IMG/VR virus record: IMGVR_UViG_3300031949_001708
Coordinates: 1,936 to 65,935 of that record
Source of the DNA: a virus
Taxonomy: Duplodnaviria > Caudoviricetes
Length of the DNA: 64,000 nt
Reading direction: 5' to 3' (one strand)
The notes beneath the pieces are model-generated. The model had not been told where the DNA came from. It did not search any database and saw only the letters and a list, made by a program, of their open reading frames with translations. Positions 6,691 through 27,719 of the stretch are shown one piece after another; within the stretch, counting starts at the first letter, position 1; the number at the start of each line of letters is the position of its first letter. The position numbers and the translations under genes are program-made.

Positions 6691-7115
6691 TGGAGGACCT
6701 CAAGGCTTGGCTGGAGGCTGGCGAGGTGCTGTGCGAGGAGTGCGGCACCGGGATGGCGGAGATCCTTCACTATCCGGGCTGCCCGAAGGCGTCGGCCGCG
6801 CTGGCCGCGCAGGAGGCGGCCCTGGCGGAAGCCGGATGGGTCGCGTTGCCCAATGACGACATCTCTCGCGATCTGCAGGCCCAGGGCTTCATCGACTACC
6901 GCTGGTTCGCCTCCTCGCCTTTCGCCGTCCTGGCGCTGGCAAAGCGGGGGAGCCGCCGCGACGATTGGGGCGCCTACATCGCGGGTGTGCCCGCGGGCGC
7001 GGACCTGGACCACGCGATCCTCCTCGTCTGGGGCTCGGCGGCAAAGCTCTCGGAGCGCCAGGCGGCCGTCCTGTTTCCGAACGTCGTGGCGTTCGGGCTG
7101 ATCTATCGGCAGTGA
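6690..7115 (+). CDS. Hypothetical protein
   Basis: TGATG coupling; CxxC. Confidence 0.55.
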   Translation: MEDLKAWLEAGEVLCEECGTGMAEILHYPGCPKASAALAAQEAALAEAGWVALPNDDISRDLQAQGFIDYRWFASSPFAVLALAKRGSRRDDWGAYIAGVPAGADLDHAILLVWGSAAKLSERQAAVLFPNVVAFGLIYRQ

Positions 7116-7171
7116 AACGTTCGCCTCCTCCGCGCCGTTCAGGTTAGCGGCGAGCTGCCGATACTACAGAT

Positions 7172-7258
7172 GAGGAAGGCAAGAGGGATAAAGCCCCTCG
7201 CAAGGCCCAACGTCCTAACGGGAAACCTTGCAAGCCTTCCTCTACTCCAGGCGAAAGC
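7172..7258 (+). ncRNA. Candidate structured RNA (three-way junction), family unassigned
   Basis: GAGGAAGGC 7172-7180 / GCCTTCCTC 7234-7242; GAGGG/CCCTC hairpin; GCAAGG/CCTTGC; GAAA loops; intergenic, lower GC. Confidence 0.35.
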
Positions 7259-7267
7259 GAGGCGCGG

Positions 7268-7525
7268 ATGATCCGGGACGAAGCGGTAGAAGCGGCGATT
7301 GACGAGGGGCGCGCCTTCATCCTCGAAGCCGAGCTGGCGGCCAACGCCGCCGTGCAGGAGGACAAGGATCGGCAGCGCCTGACCGTCTGGCTGACGTTCG
7401 CGCGACACAACTTGCGGAAAGCCGAGCGGGCCCGGAAGGACGTGTGGCGCGCGAGCGCGCTCGAGGACGTCAAGACCTACACCGACAGCGTGAAGCATCT
7501 CGTCGCCTTGCGGGCGGCTCCGTGA
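7268..7525 (+). CDS. Hypothetical protein
   Basis: ORF with typical codon bias. Confidence 0.55.
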   Translation: MIRDEAVEAAIDEGRAFILEAELAANAAVQEDKDRQRLTVWLTFARHNLRKAERARKDVWRASALEDVKTYTDSVKHLVALRAAP

Positions 7526-7764
7526 CGCACGTCTGCGACGCGCGCTGCTTCCTGCCGCCGGACGCGACGCCGGCGGAGCGGCGGGAGCACGAGACGTTCG
7601 CCGAGGCGTGGGATCGGGATGAAGCTGCGTGGCACGGGCGGGACAAGGACGAGCGAGCGCGGCGCCTAGCTGCCGCCTTGCCGCGCGTGCTGGCCCAGAT
7701 GGCGGGCCGCCCGGGCTCGGCCTTCATCCAGGACGTCGAGGACCGGCCCTGGTGGCGGTCGTGA
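7522..7764 (+). CDS. Hypothetical protein
   Basis: GTGA overlap with upstream stop; its stop abuts array 1. Confidence 0.5.
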   Translation: MTHVCDARCFLPPDATPAERREHETFAEAWDRDEAAWHGRDKDERARRLAAALPRVLAQMAGRPGSAFIQDVEDRPWWRS

Positions 7765-8240
7765 GCGAGCGGTTAGGCGATGGAGAACGGTTGGGGACTG
7801 GCGAGCGGGCAAGCTCTAGAGAACCGAAGGCCTGTGGCGAGCGGCCTGGAACTGGAGAACGGGAGAAGGCTGGCGAGCGGCAAGTCGATGAAGAATGGGC
7901 AGGCCATGGCGAGCGGAGAGCTGCTGGAGAACGGTGGGGACGTGGCGGGCGGTCAAGCAATGGAGAACGGACACTCAGTGGCGGGCGGCGGGCCTCTGGA
8001 GAATGGGTGTTGTATGGCGAGCGGAGAGCGGATCGGGAACCATAAGAAACTGGCGAGCGGCAAGCCGTCGGGGAACGGTTGACAACTGGCGAGCGGTACT
8101 CGGCTGGAGAACGGGGTAGAGCTGGCGAGTGGAGGCGGGATGAAGACAGGAACGAGAATGGCGAGCGGATCAGGAGTGGAGGCCGGCGAAAAGGTGGCGA
8201 GCGGTCCGTCGATGTAGAACGGTTGAGGGATGGCGAGCGC
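7763..8240 (+). ncRNA. TIGR-like dual-repeat array 1 (13 x 36 nt)
   Basis: Alternating TGGCGAGCGG and TGGAGAACGG separated by variable 8-mers, strict 18-nt spacing. Confidence 0.9.
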
Positions 8241-8298
8241 AAGACTTGACTTCGTGCTCGGCCTGAGTGAGTGATGTCGAAACGGAAGGAGGTGGCGA

Positions 8299-8550
8299 AT
8301 GGCCATCACGGATCGGGACCTGTCGGAAGGGACGCGCCTCGTGGCGCGCTACAAGAAGCAGACGTTCGTCTGCACGGTTGAGAAGGAGGCGATCGGCGGG
8401 AAGCTGGCGTTTGTCCTGGAGGACGGGCGGCGCTTCAAGAGCCCGTCGGCGGCCGGGTCGGCCGTCATGGGGAACATCGCGTGCAACGGCTGGCGCTTCT
8501 GGTCGGTCGAGGGCGAGGCGCCTGCGGCCGGGCCCGGGGCGGAGGCGTGA
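8299..8550 (+). CDS. RAMA/DUF4357-like small DNA-binding domain protein between arrays
   Basis: L.A.YK...G..FKSPSAAG..V.G...NGW.FW motif; GGAGGTGG RBS. Confidence 0.7.
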   Translation: MAITDRDLSEGTRLVARYKKQTFVCTVEKEAIGGKLAFVLEDGRRFKSPSAAGSAVMGNIACNGWRFWSVEGEAPAAGPGAEA

Positions 8551-26114: not shown

Positions 26115-26154
26115 GAATGAGTTCCTTGTGCTCCAGCGTGTCAGCTAGGACGAG

Positions 26155-26430
26155 TCACTTGAACGCCTCTTCGCACCAGTCCAGGTTGCGGTTGATCTCC
26201 GCCCGCGTGAGGTTCGGATGGCGCTCGACCGCAGTTCGGCAGTCCCGCATGGATGGAATGCCGATAATGAAGATTCGGAATCCAGCGCGTGAGGACCACT
26301 CCTGCGTCCCGACCTTGGCCTGGTCAACCCACTCCTGCGTCCCGACCTTCGCCTTGGGACCGGAGTCGCCGCAACTGGCAGCCACAAGCGCAGCGACTAG
26401 AATGGCTGCGCCAAAGAATTGCCTAGACAT
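26155..26430 (-). CDS. Small lipoprotein
   Basis: Signal peptide with VAASC lipobox; GGAGG RBS; AKVGTQEW duplicated. Confidence 0.75.
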   Translation of the reverse strand: MSRQFFGAAILVAALVAASCGDSGPKAKVGTQEWVDQAKVGTQEWSSRAGFRIFIIGIPSMRDCRTAVERHPNLTRAEINRNLDWCEEAFK

Positions 26431-26592
26431 GCTGACACCTCCCTCTCGGGATTATCGGCATGAGCTAGCTGATCAACTCTTGGTGCGGAGGCGCCACCCA
26501 TCCCTTGCACCTGCTCGCTCGACGTTGGCCCGGCGGTGCCACCGGACTACATGGAGGTGTTGCGCCGGGCCTGCAGGGCGCAGCACTAGCGC

Positions 26593-26693
26593 CGGCGAGC
26601 GGTCTCGCGATGGAGAACGGTTCAAGGATGGCGAGCGGCAACATAGTGGAGAACGGGGCTTCAGTGGCGAGCGGGACAGGCGATGGAGACGAG
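26593..26693 (+). ncRNA. Orphan TIGR-like mini-array 4 (2 complete units + partial)
   Basis: Same two repeats, 8-nt spacers; 26611-26638 identical to 10319-10346. Confidence 0.8.
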
Positions 26694-27116
26694 TAAGGGC
26701 TGATGGGAGCCTTCGACGAGCCGCCCGCGCCGGATGCTGGAAGTTCGATGCTGGGCCACTACGGCCTCGTCAACCCCATGATGGCGTGGCTCCTGCGCCG
26801 GCGCCCCGAACTTCTAGCCGAGACGCCGACGGAGTTCCGCACGCCCCTGCCTCCTCCGCCGCTCTGCGGCGTGCAGGTGGCCGTCAGCGACGGCTTCACG
26901 GAGCGGTGCCGCCGGACTTCCACACGGCCTGGCCGTGCTACGCGCACGAGCCGCCCGTCGTTCGGCAGATCCGGCGCGCCACGCCCGTGATGCAGCGAGG
27001 CGTCAACAGGTCGCTCGACTGGATGCTGGAGGCGACGCGGGAGGGCAAGATGCTGGATCTTGTGTTCGATCAGGGCGCGTGGATCGTGCAGGTTCAGACG
27101 CCAGAGGGGGAAACCG

Positions 27117-27719
27117 GTGGCTAGGCGTAAAGACGACTTCTACCAGACGCCGCAGTTCGCCACGATGGAGCTGCTAGACCGCATCTCCGTTCTCGGCTCC
27201 CGCGTGCTGGAGCCGTGCGTGGGCGACGGCGCGATCGCGAGCGTTCTACGGCCGCAGGCACGCGACGTCGTGACGGCCGACATCTCCTCCCGCCGGCGGG
27301 CTGACTACCACGCCGACGCCCGGCTGCCGCAACTCTACGAAGAGGTCGGGCGGGACCACGGCCGGATCGGCTGGATCATCACGAACCCGCCCTTCTCCTG
27401 CGCCTTCGACATCCTGCGCGAGGCGCTTCAGCACGCCGAGCTGGGCGTGGCGCTTCTGCTCCGCCTCTCGTTCCTCGAGCCGACGCTCGACCGCGGCGAG
27501 TGGCTCGCGCTCCACCCGCCCAGCCGCATGCTCGTGACGCCCCGCATCAGCTTCACGGGCAAGGGGACGGACTCCGTCACGACCGCCTGGATGATGTGGC
27601 CCGGCACGCTGATTCGTACCGGAGGCGTGCCGATGCTGCGGTCGTGCCCGCCGATCGAGGTCCTGGCGAAGGCGCGGGTCCCGAGCGAGCAGGAGACGCT
27701 GCTGGAGGTGCCGGTCTGA
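27117..27719 (+). CDS. Orphan N6-adenine DNA methyltransferase
   Basis: DFYQTP, VLEPCVGDG, ITNPPF, LLLRLSFLE, AWMMW. Confidence 0.88.
   Translation: MARRKDDFYQTPQFATMELLDRISVLGSRVLEPCVGDGAIASVLRPQARDVVTADISSRRRADYHADARLPQLYEEVGRDHGRIGWIITNPPFSCAFDILREALQHAELGVALLLRLSFLEPTLDRGEWLALHPPSRMLVTPRISFTGKGTDSVTTAWMMWPGTLIRTGGVPMLRSCPPIEVLAKARVPSEQETLLEVPV

Follow-up and report, generated by a model that had tools for sequence, protein, structure and literature searches.

Four dual-repeat TIGR arrays with GG...CGG anchor motifs and a predicted nuclease-free TasA gene in a phage or prophage contig

TIGR arrays of the dual-repeat type consist of alternating 8–12-nt repeats separated by 9-nt spacers, with UG as box D and CCA as box C in the arrays of TasR systems, and their motifs may diverge if those of the edge and loop repeats covary (Faure et al. 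2025, PMC12045711). In the published TIGRFinder convention, a 3-nt box C, a 9-nt spacer and a 2-nt box D form a 14-nt interval that is joined to a 4-nt gap, and the end bases of this gap pair with one another in the edge repeat. SpTIGR–TasH, from the Salicola phage CGphi29 (Faure et al. 2025; structures 9W03 and 9W04), has a single array downstream of its gene, the orientation of which is known from small-RNA sequencing. Its heteroduplexes are 8 bp in length, one shorter than those of TaTasR and PlTasA, and its H296A mutant is inactive in pre-tigRNA processing. The supplement gives the SpTIGR array (Table S1) as AGCGAGCCA + N8A and AGACAACCA + N8A, describes it by an "N8A spacer", an "AG box D" and guides with 16 variable nt, lists a SpTasH "half-edge" construct that starts with AGCCA, and assigns FpTIGR a "CCN box C".

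Other described systems resemble the locus reported here in different respects. TaTIGR–TasR from a Thermoproteota archaeon (PDB 9MTY) resembles our arrays in the pairing of the box D G to the initial C of box C, in an additional covarying pair within the edge repeat and in an A-rich loop gap; it differs in its boxes (UG and CCA), in spacers whose 9 nt are all variable and form 9-bp heteroduplexes, and in the N-terminal RuvC nuclease of its protein. The nuclease-less proteins include FpTasA, which is of the dual-repeat type, and MbTasA and PlTasA, which are RNA-guided binders and repressors (bioRxiv 10.64898/2026.09.09.750476; 10.64898/2026.08.11.744272). FpTIGR differs from the arrays studied here in its CCN box C and 9-nt spacers, and PlTasA differs in using stem-loop guides and in being without the Y/H loop, a residue dyad that is typical of dual-repeat systems. 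Finally, the tasParB–tasA operons (Faure et al. 2025, fig. S14) have arrays of 10-nt repeats upstream of, between and downstream of the operon genes, an arrangement that recurs in our locus.

The window analyzed here is a 64-kb stretch of DNA within a single 65.9-kb contig, for which a soil metagenome is the probable source; this metagenome is the only run listed for the DNA, with no RNA run beside it. A DNA methyltransferase gene and a large terminase gene lie downstream of array 3, and the contig is of phage or prophage origin. The features of the locus are collected in Table 1.

Table 1. Coordinates of the arrays, genes and hairpin of the window
Feature	Position	Strand	Description
TIGR array 1	7763..8240	+	13 tigRNA units; edge TGGCGAGCGG, spacer A 8 nt, loop TGGAGAACGG, spacer B 8 nt
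RAMA-domain ORF (Restriction Enzyme Adenine Methylase Associated)	8299..8550	+	83 aa; Pfam PF18755 E 3.3e-9, above cut-off; GC3 support; between arrays 1 and 2
Small Cys-containing ORF	8481..8783	+	Start uncertain; GC3 support; no family assigned, only weak zf-DNL match; between arrays 1 and 2
TIGR array 2	8790..8939	+	4 units; starts with half edge AGCGG, ends with half edge TGGCGA
tasA (P0002)	8985..10019	+	Predicted 344-aa nuclease-less Tas protein, coiled coil + Nop domain; between arrays 2 and 3
TIGR array 3	10013..10666	+	18 units; starts with half edge AGCGG over tasA stop, ends with half edge TGGTGA
Intrinsic-terminator-like hairpin	10676..10711	+ only	11-bp stem, 9 G-C pairs, T-rich tail; directly 3' of array 3
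TIGR array 4	26593..26682	+	Intergenic mini-array; 2 units + decayed 1-nt-shifted third; 16 kb from tasA

An earlier note had recognized a TIGR array at 7763–8240 with a layout of 10+8 nt and two repeats that differ at two positions. The array anatomy and the adjacent Tas gene uphold this identity, and the coordinates are correct, though they delimit only one of four arrays. Each of the 13 units of array 1 is exactly 36 nt long, and the edge and loop repeats, both of 10 nt and both with box D and box C (GG...CGG), alternate in 18-nt rows in a strict register that runs from 7763 to 8248. The two repeats are unlike at positions 4 and 7. Across the 72 half-units of the window, positions 1–10 carry 1.2–2.0 bits of information and positions 11–18 carry 0.06–0.29 bits, in keeping with the note's statement that 8 nt of each spacer vary. 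A search of the window for the repeat pair at a spacing of 8 nt, with at most one mismatch, gave 41 matches, all on the plus strand, and the same pattern had no match in 100 dinucleotide-preserving shuffles. No family was matched in an Rfam search of positions 7000–11000.

These arrays share the alternation of 8–12-nt repeats in many copies of a ∼36-nt unit that characterizes dual-repeat TIGR arrays, with 13, 4, 18 and 2 units in arrays 1 to 4. Their spacers, which have 8 variable positions plus an invariant U and vary between units, fall within the accepted 8–10 nt around the usual ∼9 nt. The canonical motifs are replaced by CGG as box C and GG as box D, and CGG stands at the place of CCA in the characterized systems, as the note had seen. 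This substitution does not exclude membership of the dual-repeat class because the defining paper permits diverged motifs that covary. The distinctive feature of the window system is its anchor motifs only (GG...CGG versus UG...CCA). The locus is a genuine TIGR–TasA system in which the variant motifs are real, yet within the range that the defining paper allows. Taking all the evidence together, we consider it highly probable that 7763–8240 is a dual-repeat TIGR array, the first of four with 37 guide units in total, and that it serves the nuclease-free TasA encoded at 8985–10019 by the mechanism proposed below.

The clearest comparison is with SpTIGR. Aligned by frame, A/AG-CGAG-CCA-N8 of SpTIGR corresponds base for base to U/GG-CGAG-CGG-N8 of the window, where the slash marks the end of the preceding spacer. 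In the published convention, the window array reads CGG + N8U + GG + CGAG/AGAA. Both systems have an 18-nt half-unit, a 36-nt unit and 8 variable nt followed by one invariant base; the edge gap is CGAG in both, and the loop gaps, ACAA in SpTIGR and AGAA in the window, are both A-rich. Their differences lie in box C (CCA versus CGG), box D (AG versus GG) and the invariant base (A versus U). Because SpTIGR has N8A spacers, 16 variable nt and 8-bp heteroduplexes, "10+8" is another cut of the published layout, and by this alignment the window array has the layout of SpTIGR. The geometry that the note had called non-canonical is thus a known one, and the apparent anomaly is cleared: the layout is a published TIGR layout, the predicted 8+8 guide length is that of SpTasH, and the range of guide geometries is not extended.

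This comparison also bears on whether the locus represents a new TIGR subtype, with a guide either shorter than any described or 9 nt long with an obligatory first G that fixes one target base. Such a reading draws on position 10, which is G in 92–97% of the window half-units, and on the literature, where none of the paper texts searched prints both repeats of the window pair. In relatives, however, position 10 is A or variable (CGA, CGG and CGT in locus L006, TGA in L009 and CGA in L011), and since it also aligns with the A of CCA, the invariant G is the third base of box C and not a spacer base, which recalls the CCN box of FpTIGR. The 9-nt spacer with an invariant first G that the note had entertained is therefore set aside. 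Moreover, SpTIGR already has 8 variable nt and one invariant base, its heteroduplexes are 8 bp, and a member of the same clade is present in the published Tas alignment. A new subtype is accordingly very improbable in our judgment. The spacer length that the note had thought might be new is published, and the repeat logo is largely covered by the published families, in that the contig of the aligned clade member carries the same repeats.

The note had further pointed out that the minus strand would give repeats ending in CCA, and had asked for the orientation to be checked. If the minus strand were transcribed, CG-CTCG-CCA and CG-TTCT-CCA would be the repeats, box C being the canonical CCA, box D CG and the spacer N8C. 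Such repeats would fit a 2+4+3 scheme closed by G-C pairs, and stem-loop arrays have CG among their accepted box D motifs. Pairing within the edge repeat argues against it. The window and 19 relatives, 20 loci in all, provide 272 edge half-units. In these, positions 3 and 8, where the G of box D pairs with the first base of box C, are GC in 236, GU in 26 and AC in 7; positions 4 and 7, which form the extra closing pair within the 4-nt gap, are CG in 198, UG in 61, UA in 9 and CA in 3. Both pairs covary. The edge variants compatible with wobble pairing number 87 on the plus-strand RNA and 10 on the minus-strand RNA, counts to which a few loci contribute most and which are not independent events; by locus consensus, wobble favors the plus strand in 5–6 loci and the minus strand in none. 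A minus-strand transcript would turn the 87 T variants found at positions 4 and 8 of the edge into A-C mismatches. The loop repeat keeps its 3-8 pair loosely (GC 125, GU 41, AC 36, AU 28) and gives no strand signal; its gap reads AGAA, positions 4 and 7 both being A in 110 of the 270 loop half-units, and would be U-rich rather than A-rich on the minus strand.

The genomic setting agrees with the pairing. GC3 frame analysis places plus-strand genes on every side of the arrays, and tasA, all of the flanking genes and the hairpin 3' of array 3 are on this strand. The plus strand is the tas strand of the window; in all 19 relatives with this repeat type, too, the arrays are on the tas strand. More distant relatives read AGCGAGCCA on the tas strand, in the frame in which the window reads TGGCGAGCGG. 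Gene strand, homology to the SpTIGR repeats, the G-U wobble asymmetry and the plus-strand terminator are four independent lines that resolve transcription of the arrays, as far as sequence can, in favor of the plus strand; we reject the minus-strand CCA reading and regard minus-strand transcription as very unlikely.

The three further arrays are identical to array 1 in repeats, register and strand, whereas SpTIGR–TasH has only the one array. Array 1 begins on the stop codon of its upstream neighbor, ORF 7444–7764, with an edge repeat that lacks its 5' part (GCGAGCGG retained at 7765), and ends with an edge repeat that lacks its 3' part, at 8231, the final base of which is altered. The half edges of arrays 2 and 3 are AGCGG at 8795 and 10018, TGGCGA at 8934 and TGGTGA at 10661. 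The window therefore shows the expected borders, a 5'-truncated edge first and a 3'-truncated edge last, followed by a terminator in the case of array 3; no terminator-like hairpin was found 3' of arrays 1 and 2. These half-edge ends match the published rule for assigning edge and loop, and a half-edge start is shared with SpTIGR–TasH, which is also phage-borne.

We also considered whether the repeats act at the level of DNA or protein and encode no guides, either as sites for a DNA-binding protein (for example, RAMA) or as a 12-residue peptide (MENG...LASG) in a translated ORF. Some stretches of the arrays do lie in open frames, and for a homolog, P0017, gene calling carried the N-terminus into its array. 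Against this, GC3 stays flat over the arrays whichever frame is read, compared with at least 0.9 in the flanking genes; the G-U pattern, being strand-asymmetric, speaks for selection on RNA; and arrays are found with tas genes at loci that otherwise differ in gene content. A function of the repeats outside guide RNA is thus, in our assessment, extremely improbable. In the database, P0017 opens with the translation of a TIGR array (MENG...LASG, repeated), which is a gene-calling artefact; the same repeats lie upstream of tasA there. ORF 26117–27124, which spans array 4, is without GC3 support.

The gene between arrays 2 and 3 encodes a Tas protein. It scores 106.5 bits against NCBIfam NF052498 ("TIGR-Tas system RNA-guided endonuclease", TIGR_Tas_endo), for which the cut-off is 100. 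The TaTIGR TasR 9MTY is the best match of its Nop and coiled-coil core in both sequence (phmmer E 5.6e-12) and fold; TasH is also matched, SpTasH weakly (E 0.011). With a confident AlphaFold (AF2) model (pLDDT 86.8) as query, Foldseek ranks TasR 9MTY and TasH 9W04/21KL highest, with IS621 recombinases next. Pfam alone missed the Tas identity: a search of the protein gave no nuclease match and only a weak Zn-ribbon match. No tblastn match to TasA was found among cultured phages (INPHARED) at E 1e-5.

Alignment to the Tas model begins at residue 14, and residues 143–193 of TasR correspond to TasA residues 53–103, the RuvC portion being absent. The protein is therefore predicted to be without a RuvC or HNH domain and to be a TasA, with a Nop and coiled-coil core and no N-terminal nuclease; SpTasH, in contrast, has an HNH domain. 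The window protein carries a CxxC...CxxC Zn-ribbon at ∼aa 137–165 and a helical insert at ∼aa 213–280, which are present in some homologs only. The processing dyad is retained: among 26 homologs, H330 is invariant and Y323 is at least 90% conserved, and H330 aligns with H296 of SpTasH.

To place the locus among its relatives, we drew on 58 homologs of the window TasA in a metagenome protein collection and on 76 collected loci. At 19 distinct loci, whose Tas proteins are ∼32–86% identical, the arrays have edges of the form TGG[C/T]GAGCG[G/A] and variable loops (TGGAGAACGG, TGGTGAWTGG or TGAAGA..GG). Close relatives have TGGCGAGCGG, and more distant relatives (23–32% identity) have AGCGAGCCA or AGCGAGCCG of the SpTIGR type in the same frame. 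In a tree of 33 proteins, all 17 loci with a CGG, CGA or TGA box C form one Tas clade with support of 100/99. One of its members, P0028 (UniProt A0A0F9JCM7), is 43% identical to the window TasA and is included in the published alignment of Tas Nop domains (Data S1, Faure et al. 2025), and 15 full units of the window repeat pair lie on its contig (L031; LAZR01018347); the CGG-box clade is therefore inside the published Tas family.

Box C identity can be set against one position of the protein. Among the 30 loci tabulated, the residue that follows a conserved Trp (HLWExWR; position 312 in the window TasA, ∼9918–9920) is Arg in all eight CCA loci and A, C, S or L in all 18 CGG, CGA or TGA loci, the window included. 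Two CCG loci have one Arg and one Cys after the Trp, and WR occurs in 10 of 11 CCA/CCG loci. Because the CGx loci form a single clade, the change from Arg to A, C, S or L represents one evolutionary event and not repeated covariation, and we treat it as a lead, not as proof. That the GG...CGG clade uses an altered code for box C recognition is a tentative proposal, to which we give somewhat less than even chances. If RNA specificity has changed, a compact TasA of this clade would not cross-react with CCA-type tigRNAs and could provide an orthogonal second channel for multiplexed RNA-guided DNA binding. The link between box C identity and one protein position is testable and could matter for orthogonal TIGR tools. 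What the locus adds is a well-resolved example of the GG/CGG TasA clade, with evidence for the strand and the processing site that comes from sequence alone.

We propose that the arrays are transcribed on the plus strand together with the neighboring genes, and that a TasA dimer would bind every unit at box D (G2G3) and at box C (C8G9G10) of both repeats, G3 pairing with C8 and, in the edge repeat, C4 also pairing with G7. The Y323/H330 loop would cut within the edge repeat, by analogy at UGGCG^AGCGG, a site predicted from the half edges of the window (AGCGG...TGGCGA/TGGTGA) and the AGCCA half edge of SpTasH. The products would be 36-nt tigRNAs of the form 5'-AGCGG-N8-UGGAGAACGG-N8-UGGCG-3', in which each 8-nt spacer may base-pair to one of the two strands of a 16-bp DNA site, as in SpTasH of the Salicola phage. 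Because TasA is without a nuclease domain, the expected outcome is binding or transcriptional repression, not cleavage; MbTasA provides an example of an RNA-guided repressor. By homology, the processing site, the 8-bp guide length, the repressor-type action and the targeting of DNA by the window guides would follow the characterized systems. RNA recognition may differ in detail, the window boxes being CGG and GG where every characterized dual-repeat system has CCA with UG or AG. We searched the 65.9-kb contig for self-targets, placing each of the 37 spacer pairs in four orders (A+rcB, rcA+B, A+B and B+A) with gaps of 0–4 and at most one mismatch; there were only two hits, both with one mismatch and one of them to a control arrangement, which is the chance level. 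In 596 Gb of public sequence, any 16-nt site would occur hundreds of times by chance.

The genes around the arrays differ from those of the tasParB–tasA operons, which have a ParB-like gene where the window has the RAMA and Cys-containing ORFs. The RAMA ORF is not a ParB, and a search of the inter-array ORFs with E up to 0.1 found no ParB domain. The two ORFs occupy the inter-array place at which published tasA operons sometimes have the ParB-like gene. Downstream, a mechanically called ORF, 10660–11994, starts inside the last unit of array 3 and crosses the terminator hairpin. The start of the methyltransferase gene is probably downstream of this, near 10735, as it is for the 419-aa homolog of L001.

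Several spacers recur. A complete guide unit (spacers CCTGGAAC and GAGAAGGC) is duplicated between array 1 (7835–7880) and array 3 (10517–10562), the spacer AGGCGGGA with a variant loop TGAAGAC is common to 8123–8147 and 10589–10613 in the same two arrays, and the spacer TTCAAGGA is common, with its flanking repeats, to array 4 and array 3 (at 10319). Five more pairs of window spacers differ by one base. The unit and the spacer common to arrays 1 and 3 and the one-base pairs suggest that the arrays grow through duplication and drift. None of the 68 distinct window spacers occurs in the captured arrays of L001 and L029, whose TasA proteins are 82–86% identical, and this absence fits guide turnover. 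Two spacers, AAGGGGCC and CGAAAAGG, are common to the window (10635 and 8187) and to L045 (1521 and 1992), a locus whose Tas is only 37% identical; under uniform composition, the number of shared 8-nt spacers expected by chance is ∼0.04. Purine richness was dropped as a spacer feature, being 61% in the window but weak across the family (54.5%).

A further array form was seen in loci whose Tas proteins are 20–28% identical. Arrays with a 32-nt unit lie on the tas strand at L062:211–630, L068:669–1024, L069:1547–1841 and L076:1680–1900, and also in L065, L067 and L075. Each unit has an edge TGCGGGCC[A/G], ∼9 variable nt, a very short second repeat (T[T/G]TGGC-like) and ∼8–9 variable nt. These look like dual-repeat TIGR arrays with a compressed loop repeat, in contrast to a 2026 preprint in which dual-repeat guides are uniformly 36 nt.
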